64,000 nucleotides of DNA from a virus, in IMG/VR virus record IMGVR_UViG_3300025030_000004, positions 1 to 64,000 of that record, one strand, 5' to 3'. The notes under the pieces were generated by a model. That model saw only the letters and a list, made by a program, of their open reading frames with translations. It was not told the DNA's origin and did not search any database. Of this stretch, positions 6,725 to 61,469 are shown piece after piece. The position numbers and the translations under genes were made by a program. The number at the start of each line of letters is the position of its first letter. Position 1 is the first letter of the stretch.

Positions 6725-6754
6725 GTATAGTCCAAGTTAGAACTGGATATATTA
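6725..6754 (+). promoter_or_regulatory. Candidate sporulation sigmaF/sigmaG-type promoter upstream of mazF-like gene
   Basis: GTATA-15bp-GGATATATTA matches the GYATA-N15-GGnnAnAHTR consensus. Confidence 0.55.
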
Positions 6755-6783
6755 CTATTAACAAGAAATAATTTAATTGGAGG

Positions 6784-7170
6784 TTGATAGTAATGAAAGA
6801 ATTAACTAGAGGTGCAATCTACATAGTGAATTTACCAGATGCTAGCGGGTCTATTCAAACGAAACAACGTCCTGCGGTGCTAATAAGTAATAATTTAGCC
6901 AATCGTTATAGTTCGGTTTTACACATATGTCCCTTAACTTCTGTGACTACAAAATCTAAATTACCCACTCACATTCCAGTCAGTATGAATTGCGGTCTTT
7001 TACGAGATTCTATTGCTCTCTGTGAGCAAACTATGTTAGTTACTAAGGATTGTGTGATAAAAGATAAAATAGGAGTTTGTGATGAGGAAACTATGAAAAG
7101 AATTGATCATGGTTTAATGGTGCAGTTTAATCTTATTCAAACAAATAAAAAGGAAATTGAATACGCATAA
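6784..7170 (+). CDS. mazF: PemK/MazF family endoribonuclease, with no adjacent antitoxin (likely start ATG 6793)
   Basis: RG.IY.V.L....GS.Q...RP.V.ISN...N..S......PLTS...LPTH...GL..DS..LCEQ; catalytic Arg and Thr retained. Confidence 0.9.
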   Translation: MIVMKELTRGAIYIVNLPDASGSIQTKQRPAVLISNNLANRYSSVLHICPLTSVTTKSKLPTHIPVSMNCGLLRDSIALCEQTMLVTKDCVIKDKIGVCDEETMKRIDHGLMVQFNLIQTNKKEIEYA

Positions 7171-7240
7171 TAATAGAAGGAGAGATATAATTATTGAAAG
7201 AATATATTAATTTGATAAGAGAGAAGAGGAATGATTACTA

Positions 7241-7855
7241 TTGGTTGAGACGTTAATAGCATCGCTCATCTTCTCTAAACTAAAATTGACCTTACAACTA
7301 GGTAAGCTCAAAATACATAAATCCTCATATAATATCAAACCAATATTTAAAATATGGAGTATATATCCAGTATTGTTTATGTCTATCTTGTACATAATTC
7401 TTCAAGCCATGGTGTTGCGTCAAAATTATAGTTTTCTACCATATCAAAAGATATTTAAAGATGCGTTAATAGGTTCCTATATGTTATTAGGATTAGATGT
7501 TTTATTTAGATATGAGAAATATAAGCCTTTTATAATAGCATGTTGTAGTTCACTATTAGGATTTGGATTAAATGCAATAGTAATGTATTTTAACAACGGT
7601 AAAATGCCGATTTTCCCAACATTTTCATGGTCTACAGGTTATACTCAATATGATATGATAATAAATGCTTCTAAATATGGTGACTTTCATGTTCTTGGTG
7701 ATCATACAACAAAGTTAATATTTTTATCTGATGTGTTCGACGTTTTTACCTCTATATGGTCGCTAGGAGATATATTTATAAGATTATTTGCCTTTATGAT
7801 TATATATTATTCGGTTAAGACAGTAAATCAAAGTATATCTATAAGCCAAAAATAA
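7241..7855 (+). CDS. DUF5317-like polytopic membrane protein (possible aspartic peptidase)
   Basis: G..LN..V...N.G.MP, H......T.L..LSD.F and S.GD motifs; about 5 TM segments. Confidence 0.75.
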   Translation: MVETLIASLIFSKLKLTLQLGKLKIHKSSYNIKPIFKIWSIYPVLFMSILYIILQAMVLRQNYSFLPYQKIFKDALIGSYMLLGLDVLFRYEKYKPFIIACCSSLLGFGLNAIVMYFNNGKMPIFPTFSWSTGYTQYDMIINASKYGDFHVLGDHTTKLIFLSDVFDVFTSIWSLGDIFIRLFAFMIIYYSVKTVNQSISISQK

Positions 7856-7866
7856 TAAATGATGTA

Positions 7867-7895
7867 TTGCATAATCACTTTGCGTATGGTATTAT
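7867..7895 (+). promoter_or_regulatory. SigA promoter for the sensor-agrD transcript
   Basis: TTGCAT-17-TATTAT with extended -10 TGn. Confidence 0.65.
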
Positions 7896-7939
7896 TATCC
7901 TAAGAATAAAAATAGAATAAATAGAAAGAGGTAATACAT

Positions 7940-8770
7940 ATGCAAAGCGCAATAAATGCCTTATTAAATACGATCTTGGTATCAATTCCGGAAGAAATAT
8001 TCTTAGTGGTTATGACTTTAATCTTTCTAAAAAGGTTTGATATGTTGGACGTAAGAATGTGGAAATATAATTTAAAATGGATTACAATACCTGCGTTCCC
8101 TGTGGCAATAATGATAAATGTGTTCAGATACATAATAATTATACCAAAACCGATTGCCACTATAACTGATGGAATTATCTTTTATACCTTAATGATGATA
8201 ATTATTAAGAGTAATAGTTTTAATTTTATAAGAAAAGATTATCTAAAGATTCTGTTATACTTTACCTTAAGTCTTATTATTTTAGGAGTATTAGAGAATA
8301 GTACATATCCGGTAATCATGTTCTTAATAAACAAACCATTTGAATATTTTAATAATAATATTATATGGAATTTTCTATTAGTATTGCCATCTAGAATATT
8401 TGAATATATTATACTATTTTACTCAATCAGTAAACAAAACAATGTTGTTAGAATTAAACTTTTTGACAGTATAATTTCCAATAAGTTATATTTTAAAGTG
8501 ATGATATTTTTAACAATAATGTTTAATGTTTTATCCATATTTTTAGTAAAATTCATTGTCTATGATAAAATATTAGAAAAATTGTCACTATTAGAAAAGG
8601 TGCTTGTATCAGAAATAACTTTAATATTTCCAGTAGTAGTTGTTTTTATATTTATATTGCTGATTAATGACTTATTAGTCAAACAAAAACTAATGCAACA
8701 AACTTATGAAAACCTTGCTATGCAAGATGACATATTGTTTGATGTAGAAGATGAAAATGAAAGGATGTGA
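7940..8770 (+). CDS. AgrC-sensor-like multi-TM membrane protein lacking a histidine kinase domain; acidic C-terminal tail
   Basis: About 7 hydrophobic segments; lies directly upstream of agrD; no H-box or HATPase motifs; ends ...LMQQTYENLAMQDDILFDVEDENERM. Confidence 0.65.
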   Translation: MQSAINALLNTILVSIPEEIFLVVMTLIFLKRFDMLDVRMWKYNLKWITIPAFPVAIMINVFRYIIIIPKPIATITDGIIFYTLMMIIIKSNSFNFIRKDYLKILLYFTLSLIILGVLENSTYPVIMFLINKPFEYFNNNIIWNFLLVLPSRIFEYIILFYSISKQNNVVRIKLFDSIISNKLYFKVMIFLTIMFNVLSIFLVKFIVYDKILEKLSLLEKVLVSEITLIFPVVVVFIFILLINDLLVKQKLMQQTYENLAMQDDILFDVEDENERM

Positions 8771-8776
8771 ATATAA

Positions 8777-8893
8777 ATGAAAAAATATACTATTCTCGCT
8801 AGTATAGTTGTTTTAGCAGCTACCGCATTTGCAAATGTTTTTGCTTCATGGTTCTTTGCTCATCAACCAAAAACTCCAAATTGTCTAAAATAG
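8777..8893 (+). CDS. agrD: AgrD-type cyclic lactone autoinducer propeptide, 38 aa (not in ORF track)
   Basis: MKKYTILASIVVLAATAFANVFASWFFAHQPKTPNCLK: hydrophobic leader, S-WFFA ring, HQPKxP tail typical of clostridial AgrD; RBS AAAGGA; AgrB nearby. Confidence 0.9.
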   Translation: MKKYTILASIVVLAATAFANVFASWFFAHQPKTPNCLK

Positions 8894-8902
8894 TACATAC
8901 CC

Positions 8903-8930
8903 TATAGGGAAGGCTTCGGTCTTCCCTATA
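8903..8930 (+). terminator. Stable hairpin after agrD (terminator or 3' stabiliser)
   Basis: TATAGGGAAGGC-TTCG-GTCTTCCCTATA with a cUUCGg loop; no strong U tract. Confidence 0.7.
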
Positions 8931-8967
8931 AACGTAATATAAAATTTTACAAATGCGTAAAAATGTA

Positions 8968-8996
8968 TTGACATAATTTCTCCTTTAGGATAATAT
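8968..8996 (+). promoter_or_regulatory. SigA promoter for HTH-mazF/agrB
   Basis: TTGACA-17-TAATAT. Confidence 0.55.
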
Positions 8997-9057
8997 GTAT
9001 ATATTAAATCAAATAAAAATTATATATGTATTATTAGGAGAAGAGGAGAGATGTATT

Positions 9058-9834
9058 ATGTTCAACACACCAATTAAAAAAACAATTACTGAGGAAAATG
9101 CCAAAAAAGATTTTAAGAAACTAGCTAATTATGTTTTGCGAGCAAAGGGAAACAGAACTATAAACGGATTTGCAGCCGATCTAAGAACCAATGCAGCCTA
9201 CCTTGCAGATATTATTAACGTTAGAATTAATTCTTATCCAACCATTCCCTTTTTAAAACTTATTGCAGATAATTCTGATAATCGAGTGTCACTTAAAGAA
9301 CTTACATTGGCTTGTGGGTACTCAAATTACGCTAACAATGATATGGAACAAATAAAAAATATCTATGTTAGAAGAGGTTGGTTTGCATACGCAAACTTTG
9401 GGGACAGAGCAATGGATAGCGAAATAGCTGGTCATAGATTAGTGCTAATTATCCAAAACGATACAGGAAATAAATTCAGTTCAAATACTATGGTTATTCC
9501 CATTACTTCTCGCAAAAAGAAGAATATGCCGACTCATGTTATAGTTGGAAGTGATTGTGGATTACAATTTGATTCTACAATTTCTTGTGAATTAACTAGT
9601 ACGATTTCTAAAAGAAGACTCGTACAGAATGGAATAGTGCAAAAAGTGGCAGAATGCCCTTCGTACATCATGAAACTGGTTGAGGTTGCATTGCTTAAAG
9701 CACAGGGAGTTATTGATCTAAGAATGGATGAGCAAGAGGCAATTGATTCACTAATTAATATGAATACAACAAAAACATTTCAGTATGAAAATAATTATTC
9801 GCACCATGTAACGTCACAAATGGCTTATGCATGA
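9058..9834 (+). CDS. Xre-like HTH domain fused to a PemK/MazF RNase domain
   Basis: N-term L.RAKGNRTINGFAADL...AAYL..I.N....PT...L..IA (HTH); C-term VRRG....ANFG....SE..G.R.VLIIQND.GN.FS..T.V.PITS...MPTH (MazF); RBS GAGGAG before ATG 9058. Confidence 0.85.
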   Translation: MFNTPIKKTITEENAKKDFKKLANYVLRAKGNRTINGFAADLRTNAAYLADIINVRINSYPTIPFLKLIADNSDNRVSLKELTLACGYSNYANNDMEQIKNIYVRRGWFAYANFGDRAMDSEIAGHRLVLIIQNDTGNKFSSNTMVIPITSRKKKNMPTHVIVGSDCGLQFDSTISCELTSTISKRRLVQNGIVQKVAECPSYIMKLVEVALLKAQGVIDLRMDEQEAIDSLINMNTTKTFQYENNYSHHVTSQMAYA

Positions 9835-9861
9835 TAAAAGAAAGGAAGATTAAATAATTAA

Positions 9862-10506
9862 ATGATTTCAATTCAAAGTTTATCTAATTCTAGTGCTAAA
9901 TGGTTAGCATCAAAAGTACCTAATGATAAATACCCAACAACAGAAGATCAAATAGAAGTCTTTGAATATGGGTTTATGGTTATTATAGGAGCATTGGTCA
10001 AAGGGTTCTTATTAGTCTCAACGGCGTCCATTCTGGGGGTTCTAGTTGCTACTATGATCGTTACATTAGCTTTCTCTAGTTTAAGAATTATCGCTGGCGG
10101 CTATCATATGCAGACATATTCAAGATGTGTAATGATAAGTGTTGCAATGTTCCTTGGGGGTGCATTAATAGCTCAACACACATTTCAATATTGGTCGCAA
10201 GTGAACATACTTAGTCTTTTAGCATCTTCTGCTTTTATCGCGTTGTATATAATTATAAGATATGTTCCTCGCGACACACCAAATAAACCAATCGTAGAAG
10301 CATTAGAAATATCAAAATTTAAAAGATGGTCGCTCATATACTTAATCACATGGTCTACCCTAATGACCATCTTTATACTACTTAACTTAAAATTAATTGT
10401 CATTTCAAGTTGTTTTGGGTTGTTATTGGAGCTTTTTAGTGTGAGTAAGGTCGGTTATTCTGTCTACTACAAGATAGATTCATTAACTAATTCTTCTACC
10501 AATTAA
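9862..10506 (+). CDS. agrB: Accessory gene regulator B (AIP-cyclising membrane peptidase)
   Basis: E...YG, LR..AGGYH......C (catalytic R/H/C) and P.D.PNKPI motifs; multiple TMs. Confidence 0.95.
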   Translation: MISIQSLSNSSAKWLASKVPNDKYPTTEDQIEVFEYGFMVIIGALVKGFLLVSTASILGVLVATMIVTLAFSSLRIIAGGYHMQTYSRCVMISVAMFLGGALIAQHTFQYWSQVNILSLLASSAFIALYIIIRYVPRDTPNKPIVEALEISKFKRWSLIYLITWSTLMTIFILLNLKLIVISSCFGLLLELFSVSKVGYSVYYKIDSLTNSSTN

Positions 10507-10519
10507 CGTTTCGAATCAC

Positions 10520-10588
10520 GAATAAACAAGTCAAAAATAAGTCTACATGTTTATTCTCCTTGACCTCTGGGTATAATTATTATATAAT
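10520..10588 (+). promoter_or_regulatory. SigA promoter of the repressor operon with an upstream inverted repeat
   Basis: TTGACC(10560)-17-TATAAT(10583); GAATAAACA-N19-TGTTTATTC at 10520-10556. Confidence 0.65.
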
Positions 10589-10650
10589 GATGCTTGATAA
10601 TACATAGCAATTATTTATATATTGCTAATGTGTCAAAGGAGGCAACAAAC

Positions 10651-11997
10651 ATGAAACAAGAACGCCAAAAACTTGAAGACAACTTAAATCTTATTCTTCA
10701 AGATTATAGTAATGACAAAAAAGTAATCGAGGCTGTAACAATTGGTTTGGGAGTAAAAGGTATCCCCATAGGTAAAGTAAGTGGTTTATTTTCAGGATCA
10801 ATTGATTTGTCTTATATCTCAGAAATTGAATTATGCTTATTTACTAAGTATTTTTATGATCAAATACATGAGTTCAAAATAAATCCTGAGACCTATTTCA
10901 ATGAAGTTGAATTATCTGTTGCCGAACAATACCGCTATAATGAAAAAGAAAAAACTAGAGTAATGTTATTGCATAATGTAGATCAGGTAGAAGAAGATTT
11001 GTATCTTTGTTCAAGAGAAACTTATCAAAACGTTGAAAAATTCTTTTCAAATGGACTATGGACATATAATCCTAATACACAAAGGCAACCACTTAAACGT
11101 AAAATTGGAGATAGAATTATTGAAGTCATTAATATTGATAAAGGCAAAATCAAAGAAATTAAAACAGAAATGATAAAAGGAACGTTTAATACTAATGCAA
11201 TTATGTTAAACGTTCGAAGAATAACTGGTTCTGAGAATATTCATTACAATGCTAAAAATAGAACTCTTTTAGTAGAAATTGACGAAACTACTTTTATCGA
11301 CCTGATTGATGGAATGCATAGGGTTGGAGGTATGTTGAAGGCTATTGAGGAAAAACCAGAAATAAATAGAGTTACTTCTATTTACATTCATCACAAAACG
11401 GAAGAACGCGCACTTGCTGTAATTCGACAGGAATCGAAGAGTACACCAATCTCAGATGAATGGATTGAACTTAAAAATACAGCGAATGTTAACATGGAGG
11501 TAGCCAAAGGTATAAATACTCGTCAACGTAAGAATGAAATGTTTAATAAAATTGGATTAGATAATTTAGAACTAAGAAGAGAAAATAAATTTGTAACTTT
11601 CGAAACTTTATCTAAAACCGTTGAATATGTTTATGATTTAAAAGAGGAACCGTTTATTAAAGCCGAAGAAGTTGAGGATCATTTAATTGATTTATTCAAT
11701 ATTGTTATTGGCATTAATCATAGTATGTTTAATGAATTTCTTACTTCAACAAGAGAATCATTTCATATTGCAGATAATAATATGTTCATCGGTTATGTTG
11801 TTTTAGGTGAAGAACTAAAGAAAAAATATGAATATGAATGGAAATCAGAATTTAAAAAAATATTGAAAACTATAGACTTTAGTAAATCAAATCCTGTTTG
11901 GAAGAAAATTGGCATTGAAAACAACCTCAACCTTTCGACAATTAAAAAAATTGCTGAGTATTTTAGGAGTATAGTTAATCAGGAAGGTGTGGCATAA
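10651..11997 (+). CDS. SPbeta YopQ/SroE-like protein with a DGQHR (DndB/ParB-like) domain
   Basis: YNPNTQR and IDGMHR motifs; about 450 aa; directly upstream of the YopR-like gene; RBS AAGGAGG before ATG 10651. Confidence 0.7.
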   Translation: MKQERQKLEDNLNLILQDYSNDKKVIEAVTIGLGVKGIPIGKVSGLFSGSIDLSYISEIELCLFTKYFYDQIHEFKINPETYFNEVELSVAEQYRYNEKEKTRVMLLHNVDQVEEDLYLCSRETYQNVEKFFSNGLWTYNPNTQRQPLKRKIGDRIIEVINIDKGKIKEIKTEMIKGTFNTNAIMLNVRRITGSENIHYNAKNRTLLVEIDETTFIDLIDGMHRVGGMLKAIEEKPEINRVTSIYIHHKTEERALAVIRQESKSTPISDEWIELKNTANVNMEVAKGINTRQRKNEMFNKIGLDNLELRRENKFVTFETLSKTVEYVYDLKEEPFIKAEEVEDHLIDLFNIVIGINHSMFNEFLTSTRESFHIADNNMFIGYVVLGEELKKKYEYEWKSEFKKILKTIDFSKSNPVWKKIGIENNLNLSTIKKIAEYFRSIVNQEGVA

Positions 11998-11998
11998 A

Positions 11999-12979
11999 AT
12001 GTCTTATAATTTTAAATTATATAATCCGGACAGGAAAAATCAATTTTTGAATGAAGAGTACCCCAATGAATCAACCCGTAACACTTATGCGTCTTTGCTG
12101 GTGAATATAAGACAATTTGAAGTAGAGAAAGAAAAAGATGTGTGTGATTTTTCTCTTAGTGAAGCTGTCGAATTATTAATTGGATTAAAGAAAAAGACAT
12201 TTGATTCTCTTAATGTAGCTCATACAATTCTGGTTCGCTATGTTGACTGGTGCGTATATGATGCAAAATGTTCAAAAACCTTTATTAACTCATTTAAATT
12301 GATTGATAAAGAAGATTTGAAAAAATACACCCACCAAATTGCTCAACGTCATTCGTATATAACTAGAGATAAACTATTTAATGTTGTTGATCGACTTTAC
12401 AATTATATTGACAAAGCTATTCCATTACTGTTCTTTGAAGGGGCCAAAGGACGTTCTGATGGAGATCATACTTTTGAAGAAATACGCAATTTAAGAGAAA
12501 GAGACCTTGTCCCAGAAATCAATATTATTACTCTGACTAGAGATAATGGGGAGCAACGTTCAATTAAAGTTGATCCAAGAACCATGGAAATTTTGGTTAT
12601 GGCAGCTAGAGAAACAGATTATTTTAAATCAAACGGCGAAGCAAAAGGAAGATTCCCTGTTGCTCCTTTAGCACAGTCAGAGTATATTATTAGAATGATG
12701 GAAAGCGAGCGAAGTGAAGAGACAAAAATTACTGCAAATTCTATAAACGCAAGATTTAAGAGATTTAGACAGTGGACGGGGGTAAGGTTCTTAACTCCTA
12801 CAACCGTCTTCCAGTCAGGAATGTTAGAAAGATGTGAACAAAAAGAAAAAGAATTTGGTAGAGAACTGACAGTAGATGAGTACAAACAATTGTATAGAGA
12901 TGTCAATTTAGACGACAGAAGGTATTCAGCATTAAAGGAAATGTACGAAACCTATAAAAAAAATAAAGCCCTGATGTAA
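11999..12979 (+). CDS. mrpR: MrpR/YopR/SroF-like master repressor (tyrosine-recombinase fold, catalytically degenerate)
   Basis: YN...K.QFL, FE..KEKD..DF and N..DKAI..L.FEG..G....EI.NL; integrase R and HxxR positions replaced (EGAKG, TPTTVFQSG); about 326 aa. Confidence 0.8.
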   Translation: MSYNFKLYNPDRKNQFLNEEYPNESTRNTYASLLVNIRQFEVEKEKDVCDFSLSEAVELLIGLKKKTFDSLNVAHTILVRYVDWCVYDAKCSKTFINSFKLIDKEDLKKYTHQIAQRHSYITRDKLFNVVDRLYNYIDKAIPLLFFEGAKGRSDGDHTFEEIRNLRERDLVPEINIITLTRDNGEQRSIKVDPRTMEILVMAARETDYFKSNGEAKGRFPVAPLAQSEYIIRMMESERSEETKITANSINARFKRFRQWTGVRFLTPTTVFQSGMLERCEQKEKEFGRELTVDEYKQLYRDVNLDDRRYSALKEMYETYKKNKALM

Positions 12980-12991
12980 ATTGGGGCTTTA
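12964..12991 (+). terminator. Hairpin at the end of the repressor gene
   Basis: TAAAGCCC...GGGCTTTA. Confidence 0.55.
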
Positions 12992-13120
12992 GGACTTTAG
13001 GCCTATATACTTTAGGTACATGTACCTATAAACAGAAAATAATAAATATATTCTAAGGGGAATTTGTCGAATAAGCAGTAGGAGTTGTACAATAGGGATT
13101 ATTTACCCGATATGTTTGTC

Positions 13121-13169
13121 TTGACCCAATATACATCTTAGTGTACAATATAATTAGAACAAACGTTCG
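13121..13169 (+). promoter_or_regulatory. SigA promoter with a LexA/DinR (SOS) box just downstream of -10
   Basis: TTGACC-17-TACAAT; GAAC-AAAC-GTTC at 13157-13168 matches the Firmicute GAAC-N4-GTTC. Confidence 0.75.
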
Positions 13170-13212: not shown

Positions 13213-13548
13213 ATGACTGAAGTAAAAGATGAGAAAACATTTGTACTAAAAGATCAAAATGGTTATTATGTGGGTAGCAATTCAATCTCTTATAGTAAAG
13301 GAATCAGACAGCATGTTTATTCATGTTCAAAGTATTTAACAAATGGGTTTTATACATATCAAACCTTGACGGCTGCGGAAGCAGGTTTAAAAATACTCCA
13401 AGATAAGGAAACGAAAATAAATAATGGAAAGCAATTCCATATTGAGGAAATTAATAGGTATAAAGTTTTAATGAGCGAAAGCAATATGGACGTTCCTAAA
13501 AATCCTTTTACTCACGAATATTATCAGGTGGGGTTAGCAATTGCCTAA
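13213..13548 (+). CDS. Hypothetical protein, putatively SOS-induced
   Basis: RBS AAGGAG; first gene after the LexA-boxed promoter. Confidence 0.7.
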   Translation: MTEVKDEKTFVLKDQNGYYVGSNSISYSKGIRQHVYSCSKYLTNGFYTYQTLTAAEAGLKILQDKETKINNGKQFHIEEINRYKVLMSESNMDVPKNPFTHEYYQVGLAIA

Positions 13549-13600: not shown

Positions 13601-13830
13601 GTCAACAACCACTACCCTAAAGGGATAGTGGCTTGTAGGAAACTATAAGCCACAGGTTGACTAGACTAAGTGTTAATTCACTACGTTATATAAGCCATCA
13701 TACCCGTGGACATTTATCCTAATCTACGGCTCTATGGTCTAACATTAAACAGTTTCGTGTGGTAGAAACAGTGTGCTAGGCACGACAAACTTATATAACA
13801 TTGTCTAAGGATATTCAACTCTGAAAGGAG
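13601..13830 (+). ncRNA. IscB omega-RNA scaffold (HEARO-like)
   Basis: GTCAAC...GTTGAC.AGACTAAG...CTACGTT...GCTCT...ACATTAAACAG...AACATTGTC.AAG segments immediately upstream of iscB. Confidence 0.8.
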
Positions 13831-13839
13831 GTAGACTTT

Positions 13840-15075
13840 ATGTTAGTCTACGTTTTAAGTCAAAATGGTAAGCCATTAATGCCTTGCAATCCTTTAAAAG
13901 CAAGAAAACTCTTGAAGCAAAACAAAGCAAAAATAATTAAGATTGAACCATTTACGATACAGTTATTATATGGTTCAAGTGGATATAGGCAAGAAATTAA
14001 CCTTGGTGTTGATGCAGGAAGTAAAGTGATTGGTTTGTCTGCCACAACAACTAAGAAAGAGTTGTTTTCAGCAGAAGTTCAATTAAGGAATGATATCGTA
14101 GATTTATTGTCTACACGAAGACAAAATAGACGGACGAGAAGAAATAGATTGAGATACAGGAAACCAAGATTCTTAAATCGAGTTAAGAGCAAGAACAAAG
14201 GATAGTTAGCCCCGTCTATCGAAAACAAAATCCAAAACCACTTAACGGTGGTTAGTAATGGTTATAAGATACTGCCTATGTCAAAGATAATAGTTGAAGT
14301 GGCAAGTTTTGATATTCAAAAAATAAAAAATCCTACTATTACTGGTACTGAATATCAACTGGGCGAGCAAGTGGATTTCTGGAACGTAAGAGAGTATGTG
14401 TTATTTAGAGATGGGCATCAATGTCATGGTAAAAAAAGTTGTAAAAACAAGATATTGAATGTTCACCATATTGAGTCAAGGAAGACAGGTGGAAATAATC
14501 CTTCTAACTTGATTACGCTTTGCGAAGAGTGCCATGACGATTACCATAAAGGTAAACTGAAGTTAAACATCAAGAGAGGACAAAAATTCAATGATGCTAC
14601 CTTTATGGGAATAATGAGATGGAGTTTTTACAATAAGCTAAAAGACATATATCCTGATGTAAGTTTGACGTATGGCTATATTACTAAAAACACGAGAATC
14701 CATAATAACTTACCGAAAGAACATCGTATTGACGCATTATGTATTAGTGGTAATCCTCAAGTCAAAAGATTAGACTACTTCTACTTCTCAAAAAAAGTAA
14801 GATGTCACAACAGACAGATTCATAAAGCAAACATTTTGAAAGGTGGTGTCAAAAAGTTAAACCAAGCACAATTTGAAGTAAAAGGGTTTAGGCTCTTTGA
14901 TAAGATTCAATACCAAGGGAAACTATATTACATTTTTGGAAGAAGAAACAGCGGTTTCTTTGACATTAGAACTTTAGACGGAACCAAGGTTAACAAAGGT
15001 AGTATCAGTTGTAAATCTTTCAAATTAATTGAGAGAAGAAAAAGTCTATTAACAGAAAGGAGGATGGCAGTTTAG
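13840..15075 (+). pseudogene. iscB: IscB RNA-guided endonuclease with a nonsense codon (TAG at 14203-14205, expected Trp in GWLAPS)
   Basis: PLMP, RuvC-I GVDAG, Arg-rich bridge helix, RuvC-II VEVASFD, HNH (HHI...N...NLITLC..CH) and RuvC-III HRIDA; both ORF-track pieces are in one frame. Confidence 0.9.
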
Positions 15076-58843: not shown

Positions 58844-60403
58844 CTATTTGTCCTTGATAATATCAAGAAAATACTTATCTAGTCCATTATTCCATTCAAT
58901 ATCTATTCCTTTATCTAAATGTATAGTTATTCTTTTTATGATTTTTCTCAATCCAACGTTATCAATGGTAGCAATATCAAAATCCTTAATAAGTTCTACG
59001 AAAGAATTATACAACTTATATATATTATTAATCTCCTTATTGATGTTTATAATCTTATTTCTAGATAATTCTAATCCTTTTAATTCTTCGTCAACTGATT
59101 TTTTAACCCTATTATATTCCTCCTTAGAAATTTCTCCATCGGCTCTCATCGCAGACAATCCATCTTTACGTTTCTCTAATTTCGTAATTGATTCCTCAAT
59201 TAAAGGAAGTTTCTTTATAAAATCTTTTCCTAAATTTGATTCAATATAAACGTCGTAATATCGTTTCATCACTAAAGGGTTAATATTTTTAACTTTTTCA
59301 ACTTGTTCTTGAATATAATCTAGTATATCTTCTTCCCTAATGTAATGATAGTCGCTACACATGCTTTTATCCCTATGTCTATTACTACATAGATAATAAA
59401 ATAAATCTGGCTTGTCTCTTCTCTGTGCTCTTTTCATAGACGCTTTACAATTTGCACAATAAAAAATATTGGATAGTAAATTCTTGGAACTATATTTCTT
59501 GTTGCTCTTTACTAACAAAGCTCTTGATTCTTTAATCTCATTTGCTCTAATAAAAAGGTCGTCACCAATAATTCTTAAATTTTCAAAATAATGCACTATT
59601 CTATCATCTTCATCAATTGTCTGAATTTTACTTGTAAATATATCTAACATCACAGATTGATAATTGACCTGCTTTCCTGTATAAATTGGATTGCTGATTA
59701 TTTTACCTATCGTTGCTTGTTGCCACATTTTGTTTTTCTTAGATGGGATACCTAATTCATTTAAAGTCAAAGCTATTTTGAATAAAGAATATCCTTGATT
59801 AACATACCAATTAAATATCTTCCGTATAACCTCAGATTCGCCTGTATTGATTTGTAGGAATGCTTTAACCCTATCATAACCGTAGGCTGGTTGACTCGTC
59901 CAGTGACCCTCTTTTTGTGCTTGTCTCATACCTACCTGAATACCTTTAGATAATGCTATTAATTCATTCTGAGCAAGAGAACCTAAAATATTAAGCATAA
60001 CCTCATCGCCATAAGTTTTAGCATAATCTCCGGTGTTTAAATTCTCTTTAAGAAAAAATACTCCTATATCTTTTTTTCTTAATTCTCTGACTGTCTCTTG
60101 GAGCGTTACAATATCACGACTGTAACGAGCTATATTACTCGTCAATATCTGAACAAAAAATCCTTTATTTGAATCAGTCATCATTTTATTAAATTCATCA
60201 CGTTTTTTTGTACTTTTACCACTAATACCCCTATCCGCATAAACCCCATCTTTCCCACATTCTTTGACTAAATAATATCCTAATTCTTCAGCCCTTTCTT
60301 TAAATATTTTTTGTTGGTTATCAAATGAATTCTTTTGATCATCAGAACGGGTTGAGACGCGAGCATAGGCCACCGCAGGTAAAAGAGTTGAATATTTAGA
60401 CAT
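58844..60403 (-). CDS. Large serine recombinase/integrase
   Basis: AYARVST..DQ..S...Q, D.G.SG....R..F, RYSR, YGY recombinase domain, C..C/C..C zinc ribbon and coiled coil. Confidence 0.95.
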   Translation of the reverse strand: MSKYSTLLPAVAYARVSTRSDDQKNSFDNQQKIFKERAEELGYYLVKECGKDGVYADRGISGKSTKKRDEFNKMMTDSNKGFFVQILTSNIARYSRDIVTLQETVRELRKKDIGVFFLKENLNTGDYAKTYGDEVMLNILGSLAQNELIALSKGIQVGMRQAQKEGHWTSQPAYGYDRVKAFLQINTGESEVIRKIFNWYVNQGYSLFKIALTLNELGIPSKKNKMWQQATIGKIISNPIYTGKQVNYQSVMLDIFTSKIQTIDEDDRIVHYFENLRIIGDDLFIRANEIKESRALLVKSNKKYSSKNLLSNIFYCANCKASMKRAQRRDKPDLFYYLCSNRHRDKSMCSDYHYIREEDILDYIQEQVEKVKNINPLVMKRYYDVYIESNLGKDFIKKLPLIEESITKLEKRKDGLSAMRADGEISKEEYNRVKKSVDEELKGLELSRNKIININKEINNIYKLYNSFVELIKDFDIATIDNVGLRKIIKRITIHLDKGIDIEWNNGLDKYFLDIIKDK

Positions 60404-60434
60404 TTAATTTCACCTCATAGTACAAGATGTTACT

Positions 60435-60464
60435 ATTATAGAAGGGTAAAAGGAATTTTGTCAA
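60435..60464 (-). promoter_or_regulatory. SigA promoter of the integrase
   Basis: TTGACA-18-TATAAT on the minus strand. Confidence 0.65.
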
Positions 60465-60498
60465 ATAGTATAGTTTATAATTTATTTGTGGTAGTAAG

Positions 60499-60551
60499 TT
60501 TACAAGGCAATATCACTGTGATATATTGAATGTAATACAATTGTAATACAA
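60499..60551 (+). promoter_or_regulatory. parMR promoter with candidate parC/operator repeats
   Basis: TTTACA-17-TATATT; TGTAATACAA direct repeats at 60531 and 60542. Confidence 0.55.
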
Positions 60552-60572
60552 ATTATAAAGGGAGGAATTCAC

Positions 60573-61469
60573 ATGCTATTTTGGGATTGTGGTAACTCAT
60601 ATGGGAAAGCTCTTGACTCAAAAGGAAGAGAATTATTAACTCTTTCGGTCATCGGTAAAGCACAAGACTCATTTACAGAAAAACAACTATGGCAAATTGA
60701 TGGAAATTATATCGGAGAAGATGCAATAAAACATGGTTATGCACAGGATTACTCATTGGATGAAATCAAAACACAACAATCTACATTCAAAACACTAACA
60801 AAATACATCCTATGCAATTACAAAAATGAAGACAAGGTAGTATTCTTATTTCCATTTGAATCTTATTTTTCAGAAAAGAAACAAATCATTGAAATGTTTA
60901 GTAAAAATATGGATATCATTTATAAGATAGGAAACACTACCTACACTTATAATTTTAACCCCACTTTAATCAAATCATTACCACAAGGATTTTGTGCAGG
61001 AATGGATTATTTTCTAGATGATAATGGAAAACAAAAAGAAGATATTCCAAACGTAACTCTGATTATCGACGTAGGAATGGGGACTGTGAACTATATTTAT
61101 TTACTAAAGGGTGAGGTTATAAGAGAAATGTCTCATACAACTGCTAATGGAATGCATCAGATTTATAAACGAGGACTCCAAGGTAGAAAGATTTATGAAG
61201 TAGATATGTATCATGGGTATGATTCAATAGCACATTTATATCCAGATTTAGCAACACTAATAAAAAGCGATGTAACAACTTACTACAATATCAAACAGAT
61301 TGATAGAATTTTATTTGTTGGTGGAGGAGGGACTGCCATATATTATTTCTTGCCTTGGACAAATAAAGTTTTGCACAAAGGTCAATTCTCTAATGTTAGA
61401 GGTGCAAAAAAGGTGGTGCAGAATCTATCATGGGGGAAATCAGAACATTTAGAGATGATGATGTCTTAA
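60573..61469 (+). CDS. parM: ParM/StbA actin-like partition ATPase
   Basis: D.GNS..K (phosphate 1), PQG, IIDVG.GT (phosphate 2), VGGG (adenosine) and N.RG. Confidence 0.88.
   Translation: MLFWDCGNSYGKALDSKGRELLTLSVIGKAQDSFTEKQLWQIDGNYIGEDAIKHGYAQDYSLDEIKTQQSTFKTLTKYILCNYKNEDKVVFLFPFESYFSEKKQIIEMFSKNMDIIYKIGNTTYTYNFNPTLIKSLPQGFCAGMDYFLDDNGKQKEDIPNVTLIIDVGMGTVNYIYLLKGEVIREMSHTTANGMHQIYKRGLQGRKIYEVDMYHGYDSIAHLYPDLATLIKSDVTTYYNIKQIDRILFVGGGGTAIYYFLPWTNKVLHKGQFSNVRGAKKVVQNLSWGKSEHLEMMMS

Follow-up and report, generated by a model that had tools for sequence, protein, structure and literature searches.

To our knowledge, arbitrium is the main example so far of viruses counting each other by means of a secreted peptide, and it is confined to phages of the Bacillus group. 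In the published model for phage phi3T, the peptide represses induction by way of the ribonuclease (RNase) MazF, which leaves the sro operon unharmed (PMC10769878; bioRxiv 10.1101/2025.11.27.690993). Here we describe a phage cassette of eight genes in which agr-type peptide genes stand with two MazF-type RNases directly upstream of repressor genes. It lies on a stretch of 64,000 nt (positions 1 to 64,000 of IMG/VR record IMGVR_UViG_3300025030_000004), referred to below as the window, and an annotation made earlier from these letters, the original prediction, had drawn attention to it. The cassette itself is real and conserved, and it looks like a further, putative kind of phage-to-phage communication beside arbitrium; its mechanism is one that we infer. 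Our preferred reading, held with moderate confidence, is that it is a self-contained agr-type signalling cassette of the phage at the front of the lysogeny-control region, consisting of a peptide, a membrane protein (S1), an effector in which a helix-turn-helix (HTH) domain is fused to MazF (HTH::MazF), and a separate SOS input.

The eight genes (MazF1, DUF5317, S1, AgrD, HTH::MazF, AgrB, YopQ-like and YopR-like) occupy positions 6784-12979, all on the + strand. The map of open reading frames (ORFs) and the domain calls gave the same gene order as the original prediction. Together with the control elements among and behind them, the features are as follows.

6784..7170, + strand: MazF1, a stand-alone PemK/MazF-type RNase of 128 amino acids (aa) (PF02452, 4e-21; PHROG 1936).
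7241..7855, + strand: DUF5317 membrane protein, 204 aa (PF17248, 4e-19).
7940..8770, + strand: S1, 276 aa, candidate peptide receptor or maturation factor (AlphaFold2 (AF2) model with seven transmembrane helices).
8777..8893, + strand: AgrD precursor, 38 aa (TIGR04223 quorum_AgrD, 32.7 bits against a cut-off of 19), predicted ring S-W-F-F-A followed by HQP.
8903..8930, + strand: 12-bp hairpin with a UUCG loop, just after agrD (dG -18.6 kcal/mol, z -5.1).
8968..9034, + strand: promoter of the HTH-mazF operon, TTGACA-17-TAATAT, with an inverted repeat (spacer alignment, 14 loci).
9058..9834, + strand: XRE-HTH::MazF fusion, 258 aa (PemK, 3e-18, residues 127-234 of the ORF; XRE HTH from the model).
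9862..10506, + strand: AgrB peptidase/cyclase, 214 aa (PF04647, 1e-36).
10594..11997, + strand: YopQ/SroE-like protein of the DndB/DGQHR type (PF14072, 1e-12; PHROG 5732, 5e-65).
11987..12979, + strand: YopR/SroF/MrpR-like integrase-fold master repressor (PF22822, MrpR_N_CB, 2e-17; PF22823, MrpR_C_cat, 7e-15; PHROG 5830).
13121..13168, + strand: promoter TTGACC-17-TACAAT with a LexA (Cheo) box core, GAACAAACGTTC, at 13157-13168 (motif scan).
13213..13548, + strand: ORF of 111 aa behind the LexA box, an analogue of Sar by position and length only.

To find related loci, IMG/VR was scanned with an alignment of fusion-protein homologues as the query. The scan yielded 20 loci, the longest of their contigs measuring 230 kb; these and five metagenome contigs were taken into the annotation. 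The cassette had the same neighbours in 20 of 20 IMG/VR loci, and on further metagenome contigs, in the order MazF1..(AgrB)-DUF5317-S1-AgrD-HTH::MazF-(AgrB)-(S2)..YopQ-YopR, where S2 is a paralogue of S1 and where AgrB follows the fusion or precedes DUF5317, depending on the locus. YopQ was present in all 20 loci and YopR in 19 (the remaining contig stops short of yopR); S1, AgrB and MazF1 were each found in 19, the remaining contig beginning within the cassette, and DUF5317 was found directly upstream of S1 in 18. The genes upstream of MazF1 differ between loci. The identity of YopQ and YopR to the window's versions is bimodal, at either 25-29% or 47-63%, and is unlinked to the similarity of the cassettes, so the adjacency of cassette and repressor has outlived the shuffling of modules. 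Clusters that are mainly chromosomal and unlinked to phage repressors would have spoken against the original prediction; for the MazF-containing cassette we found the opposite, YopQ/YopR being linked in every related locus examined. That the genes are chance neighbours, or a decaying remnant that does nothing for the phage, is hardly credible, since open frames, catalytic motifs and gene order are maintained at 24-68% protein identity across more than 20 loci. Among the GenBank phages of INPHARED none carried AgrB, S1 or a full-length fusion (the searches included tblastn with the window's AgrB and S1), and a DNA-level search gave no match in GenBank phages. As far as we searched, the full MazF-bearing cassette is phage-specific, while its S1-AgrB-AgrD core has chromosomal cousins. 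Some relatives have a gene of 585 aa resembling a NUMOD/zinc-finger homing endonuclease between MazF1 and DUF5317 (locus L007, 1428-3185).

We next consider the peptide. The unannotated 38-aa ORF that the original prediction took for agrD does score above the NCBIfam cut-off for this family, and an orthologous small ORF follows S1 in every locus. AgrD contains a conserved [HYN]Q[PS] motif, and at position -5 from it all 25 loci have a Ser or Cys; the ring foreseen earlier, SWFFA, agrees with this alignment. The 25 loci hold 21 distinct rings, 16 with Ser and 5 with Cys; the four ring residues after the Ser or Cys are hydrophobic and hypervariable, and the AgrD leader and follower are conserved. 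The AgrB motif G-G-x-H-x6-C, which contains the His/Cys dyad, is kept in 25 of 25 phage AgrBs (the window's and 24 related ones). We infer that the product of AgrB and AgrD is a cyclic peptide of five residues, in the window S-W-F-F-A. The predicted peptide probably has no exocyclic tail, since V-F-A, a signal-peptidase-like site, lies immediately before the ring Ser. Such a peptide could be either a lactone or, after an acyl shift as in Ruminiclostridium, a head-to-tail cyclopeptide. Tail-less clostridial autoinducing peptides (AIPs), among them those of R. cellulolyticum, have been reported, the acyl shift giving a head-to-tail cyclopeptide, and lactone AIPs formed on Ser are a known rare variant (PMC8251862).

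The ring varies together with S1. Among 22 non-redundant loci S1 is the least conserved of the three proteins compared, with a mean pairwise identity of 0.36 (AgrB 0.40, fusion 0.49), and ring similarity correlated with S1 identity (rho 0.68). When the fusion, agrD's other neighbour, was controlled for, the partial rho between ring and S1 was 0.51 (0 of 2000 permutations), and that between ring and AgrB was 0.26 (p 0.006). This covariation resembles the pattern of agr specificity groups and, as a signal in aligned sequences, favours a specific relationship between S1 and the peptide; a receptor and a specific processing factor would both be expected to produce it.

S1 belongs to no Pfam or NCBIfam family. 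In its AF2 model (predicted local distance difference test score, pLDDT, 87) the last of seven transmembrane helices continues into a cytoplasmic helix, and the distribution of charges fits an N-out/C-in topology. The short cytoplasmic tail has a conserved K-x4-Q-x-Y-E-N followed by acidic residues. The window's phage has a single S1, and many related phages carry S2 after agrB or after the fusion gene (L078, L080, L082, L084, L092-L096, L007), with its own version of the Q-x-Y-E-N tail. We considered the S1 tail as a mimic of the MazE helix and rejected it: there was no MazE among its PDB sequence matches at E<=10, and chromosomal relatives without MazF have a comparable motif next to the membrane. 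A predicted complex of the tail (residues 241-276) with two copies of HTH::MazF scored 0.00, which is evidence neither way. As to ancestry, the ESM Atlas's own model of S1 aligned over 221 residues to a cluster of HATPase_c_5 kinases (template-modelling score, TM, 0.63 by query). A hidden Markov model (HMM) of the S1 family matched the N-terminal membrane part of one HATPase_c_5 kinase collinearly at 24.5 bits, and hhalign of the family against the N-termini of 15 such kinases gave a probability of 87.6% over 141 columns. We therefore describe S1 as a seven-helix protein associated with agr, perhaps descended from a sensor of the AgrC type, and do not call it an AgrC.

Chromosomal relatives of S1 often lie directly beside agrB/agrD in Clostridia, for example in Ruminiclostridium cellulolyticum, and have a longer helical cytoplasmic tail resembling a dimerization and histidine phosphotransfer (DHp) helix, a further hint of a sensor origin; the S1 family was found in 14 of 399 sampled genomes of the class. 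DUF5317 is commoner in bacteria (76 of 399 sampled genomes). Around the bacterial DUF5317 genes, tblastn in 30 loci with flanks of about 1.5 kb detected no AgrB, and the long forms of DUF5317 contain no further Pfam domain. In Clostridium perfringens strain 13, two uncharacterised ORFs, CPE1563 and CPE1562, share a transcript with agrB-agrD, and toxin production was restored by no construct other than the one that included both (PMC2706048). By their combined size CPE1563 and CPE1562 might be a DUF5317 plus an S1-type protein.

These chromosomal loci bear on a different view of the cassette, namely that it is a lysogenic-conversion 'moron' whose AIP is read by AgrC/VirS-type kinases of the host, with S1 and DUF5317 serving maturation, export or self-protection and the MazF genes being unrelated neighbours. 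Phage agr genes aimed at the host were proposed for phiCDHM1 (PMC3901668), and C. perfringens is known to have orphan agrBD loci to which unlinked kinases respond (PMC7492741). In the agrB-S1-agrD loci of Clostridia, moreover, S1 relatives occur without MazF and without an adjacent kinase, and S1 has no proven link to sensor kinases. We nevertheless judge this view rather unlikely. In every phage locus the fusion gene adjoins agrD, either directly after it or between agrD and agrB, and full-length copies occur only there; the cassette always lies beside repressor genes, across shuffled repressor types; and ring similarity follows S1 more than AgrB. Nor would a biosynthetic helper be expected to be the fastest-evolving component or to come as two paralogues in one phage.

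We then turned to the putative effector. The longest ORF of the fusion gene starts at 8995; homologues and a conserved ribosome-binding site (RBS) and ATG place the true start at 9058. We found 52 clusters of homologues at 51-100% identity, 49 of them 256-276 aa long, on contigs of up to 202 kb. In the AF2 model (pLDDT 80) the MazF domain resembles the MazF proteins of Bacillus and Staphylococcus, with 35-38% identity and a TM score of 0.90. The catalytic Arg127 is invariant, and the T-S-R motif invariant or nearly so, in 35 homologues. Pfam HMMs did not detect the HTH domain of the fusion. In the model, residues 15-90 align to CapH-NTD, XRE regulators, C.AhdI, ImmR and SinR (VIA-align Z 9.1-9.6; root-mean-square deviation 1.6-2.6 over 62-74 residues) as a five-helix lambda-repressor-like domain. 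The HTH-mazF assignment made earlier thus stands, the PemK domain by profile and the XRE-type HTH by model. MazF1 and the MazF part of the fusion share 31% identity; the 232-nt gap before mazF1 contains no + strand ORF of 30 aa or more, and no MazE-like gene is adjacent. A conserved Q-x-A-[FY]-A forms the C-terminus of the fusion proteins (window 9820-9834), and I-E-Y-A that of MazF1 (7156-7170); this terminal motif may be a degradation or recognition tag.

The spacer between agrD and the fusion gene carries conserved control elements. The hairpin after agrD is kept with compensatory changes in 14 loci and is a candidate terminator, attenuator or 3' stabiliser. The arms of the inverted repeat lie at 8990-9003 and 9021-9034, the left one over the -10 element of the HTH-mazF promoter, and promoter and dyad recur in diverged loci (the repeat also stands in this spacer in L077, L083 and L084). 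Judged by its sequence, the repeat at 8990-9034 is a candidate operator for a dimeric HTH protein. Because hairpin, promoter, inverted repeat and RBS/ATG are all kept in this spacer across 14 loci, the cassette probably consists of two units, mazF1-DUF5317-S1-agrD and HTH::mazF-agrB-yopQ-yopR.

The same proteins could be put together in another way, as a toxin-based maintenance or exclusion module. The MazFs would then act in plasmid-prophage addiction, superinfection exclusion or abortive infection, with the HTH or a membrane protein neutralising them and the peptide only gating them by density, and the choice between lysis and lysogeny would be left to YopQ/YopR, LexA and an antirepressor. 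Both MazF domains do look catalytically intact with no MazE gene at hand, and MazF-like genes are common phage accessory genes (PHROG 1936; 82 phage records). A ParM-like gene beside the serine recombinase of this phage suggests plasmid-type or integrative carriage. In Clostridium phage c-st, too, this position is taken by a MazF-like gene, and agr genes are missing: CST027-CST030 encode a 220-aa MazF-like protein with a C-terminal extension, an unrelated 218-aa protein, YopQ and YopR. The linkage of MazF to the repressor therefore reaches beyond agr-bearing phages. We find this module improbable all the same, as none of the eight cassette proteins matches a PADLOC defence model, the repressor operon begins with the fusion gene and has the conserved, dyad-bearing promoter ahead of it, and the tight linkage to AgrD, AgrB and S1 in all loci calls for a signalling explanation.

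The repressor genes themselves are of the SPbeta type. The YopQ-like protein is 25% identical to phi3T YopQ (phi3T_96) over 392 aa (E 2e-23). The YopR-like protein, in which both MrpR domains exceed their cut-offs, has 28% identity to phi3T YopR in an alignment covering 88% of its length, and its gene overlaps the yopQ-like one at 11987-11997. With the YopR-like protein, tblastn found phi3T/SPbeta YopR and CST030 of c-st, and MrpR_N_CB occurred in 2 of 401 sampled Bacillota genomes. Downstream of yopR, the LexA-boxed promoter of the original prediction was recovered: the box at 13157-13168, just after the promoter, is the only GAAC-N4-GTTC site in the window. By count alone a single box is not rare, as 41 of 100 shuffles contained at least one. 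Four related phages (L089, L090, L094 and L095), however, have this box at a distance of 161-185 nt behind the stop codon of yopR, a conserved position; related loci totalling 378 kb contain 13 such boxes. Sar is a LexA-controlled antirepressor downstream of sroF in phi3T (bioRxiv 10.1101/2025.11.27.690993), and the 111-aa ORF has no sequence similarity to it (phi3T_99). Just behind this ORF there is a full-length HEARO RNA (13601-13819; RF02033, 141 bits). After it comes an IscB-like gene in two pieces, the ORFs 13840-14205 and 14248-15075, and RNA and gene together look like an inserted OMEGA/IscB element. Three relatives (L060-L062) have an intact RRXRR+HNH gene of 427 aa between agrB and yopQ.

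The cassette is phage-borne, as had been predicted: the IMG/VR record, of which the window is the first 64 kb, comprises an entire phage genome (166,652 bp, about 30% G+C) that has a terminal repeat of 357 bp. It is a large temperate phage of Clostridium type, with the hallmarks of a 519-aa serine recombinase beside a ParM-like gene, three tyrosine recombinases and the YopR/MrpR-type repressor. The large serine recombinase is on the minus strand and adjoins an actin-like gene of the ParM/ALP_N type (window 58844-61469); the pair suggests SPbeta-like integration, plasmid-type segregation of the prophage, or both. The earlier statement that AgrA and histidine kinase domains are missing from the window could be widened, since HATPase_c, HATPase_c_5, Response_reg and LytTR had no match in the whole phage.

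In the mechanism that we propose, the five-residue cyclic peptide made by AgrB and AgrD would accumulate with the number of infected or lysogenic cells and be bound by S1 at the membrane. Through its conserved cytoplasmic face S1 might then alter the availability or activity of the cytoplasmic XRE-HTH::MazF, the first product encoded by the operon that ends in the SroE/SroF-type repressors, behind its dyad-bearing promoter. HTH::MazF could act on its own promoter through the HTH, on phage or host transcripts as an RNase, or both, and the outcome would tilt the choice between lysis and lysogeny. DNA damage would have an entry of its own, as it does in phi3T: the promoter with the LexA box and the small ORF that lie beyond the repressor gene. 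It is phi3T, with a peptide module in the same slot and a MazF that spares sro, that provides the precedent for a signalling cassette of this kind. In its strongest form the proposal would have a kinase-less seven-helix receptor read a viral cyclic peptide and directly control a DNA-binding MazF RNase, and thereby the SroE/SroF operon, making this a second, independently evolved phage-phage system with many pherotypes; we regard that version as possible, on the doubtful side.

Several observations weigh against a signalling cassette with S1 as its receptor. The first group concerns S1. A phmmer search with S1 against 1.8 billion representatives returned 140 clusters of about 250-330 aa (no protein longer than 326 aa) with no kinase relative among them, and a word-based search from the Ruminiclostridium member returned only hypothetical proteins of at most 308 aa. 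Foldseek of S1 against the PDB gave no match, and an Atlas search with the higher-confidence AF2 model of S1 gave no kinase, with TM scores of at most 0.36. With searches so mixed, the link to AgrC comes down to the 24.5-bit HMM match, the 87.6% hhalign probability and one structure search, and of the 'kinase-less AgrC-like sensor' proposed originally, the kinase-less part holds for the whole phage while the likeness to AgrC has evidence on both sides. The variability of S1 does not differ between its outer and inner sides (p 0.96). In the chromosomal S1-agrB-agrD loci no MazF was detected within 8 kb, which fits a role in maturation, export or immunity as well as one as a receptor.

The second group concerns MazF and the repressor. 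Bacillus MazF cleaves at UACAU, and the HTH-mazF..yopR operon contains 7 copies of this sequence against an expectation of 7.1, hence no depletion, although the Bacillus site may not be that of these MazFs. Phage c-st has its MazF-like gene before yopQ-yopR and no agr genes, so the connection between MazF and the repressor module may need no peptide. Lastly, all loci come from one phage group, and their conserved order could partly reflect common descent.

If the signalling reading is true, peptide communication at the lysis-lysogeny switch arose more than once, here in phages of anaerobic Clostridia and in the same genomic slot, and agr signalling extends beyond two-component transduction. 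The cassette would then allow a connection from peptide signal to MazF RNase to be tested, the host being the source of MazF in phi3T. With 21 variants, the ring points to a diversification of pherotypes among co-occurring phages and, if this is right, related phages would discriminate self from non-self. The seven-helix S1 family also accompanies some of the 'orphan' agrBD loci of Clostridia that lack assigned receptors. In the full-text literature we found phage agr genes for phiCDHM1 only, and neither the cassette nor DUF5317 nor the S1 family was mentioned, in line with the earlier remark that no description of this architecture was known.

How, then, does the cassette compare with described systems? 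The chromosomal agrB-S1-agrD loci of Ruminiclostridium and other Clostridia have the same membrane-protein family beside AgrB/AgrD. They differ in the longer DHp-like tail of that protein and in having no MazF or DUF5317 neighbour detectable by BLAST with the window's proteins, and their S1-type proteins are annotated as hypothetical only. Canonical agr systems (S. aureus agrBDCA and the clostridial loci) share the AgrB His/Cys dyad and the five-residue AgrD ring with its follower motif, and they likewise pair a hypervariable peptide and membrane partner with a conserved cytoplasmic component. Unlike them, the phage lacks a histidine kinase, a receiver and a LytTR regulator throughout its genome, Ser is its usual ring-forming residue, and XRE-HTH::MazF stands where a regulator would be expected. 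The agr3 genes of Clostridioides difficile phage phiCDHM1 are a further case of agrB and agrD on a temperate phage of Clostridia. As the original prediction had it, they come with a kinase, a full AgrC histidine kinase (PMC3901668), and no MazF fusion or link to an SPbeta-type repressor has been described for them. Among toxins, B. subtilis MazF/EndoA and S. aureus MazF (PDB 4MDX, 4ME7, 4MZM) share with the fusion the fold, 35-38% identity and the catalytic Arg and Thr/Ser; here there is no MazE gene, and the fusion has an N-terminal XRE HTH and a C-terminal extension.

The comparison with arbitrium of SPbeta/phi3T is the closest in genomic position. In both, a secreted-peptide module lies directly upstream of an operon ending in YopQ/SroE-YopR/SroF; the cassette is where phi3T has aimR-aimP-aimX, the slot to which it had been assigned. 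In both, the repressor gene is followed by a promoter with a LexA box and by a small ORF, which in phi3T is Sar, and in both there is a MazF RNase, part of the pathway in phi3T. The MazEF route named in the original prediction applies to phi3T only; arbitrium in other phages has different modes of action (bioRxiv 10.1101/2025.11.23.689978). A search for AimR, with that of phi3T as the sole query, gave no match in the whole phage at E<=1. The arbitrium peptide is a linear hexapeptide imported by Opp, whereas the one predicted here is a cyclic peptide of the AgrD/AgrB type; the arbitrium receptor is a cytoplasmic tetratricopeptide-repeat protein, whereas the candidate here is a membrane protein; and the MazF of the phi3T pathway is a host toxin blocked by AimX, whereas here MazF is encoded by the phage itself and fused to an HTH domain.

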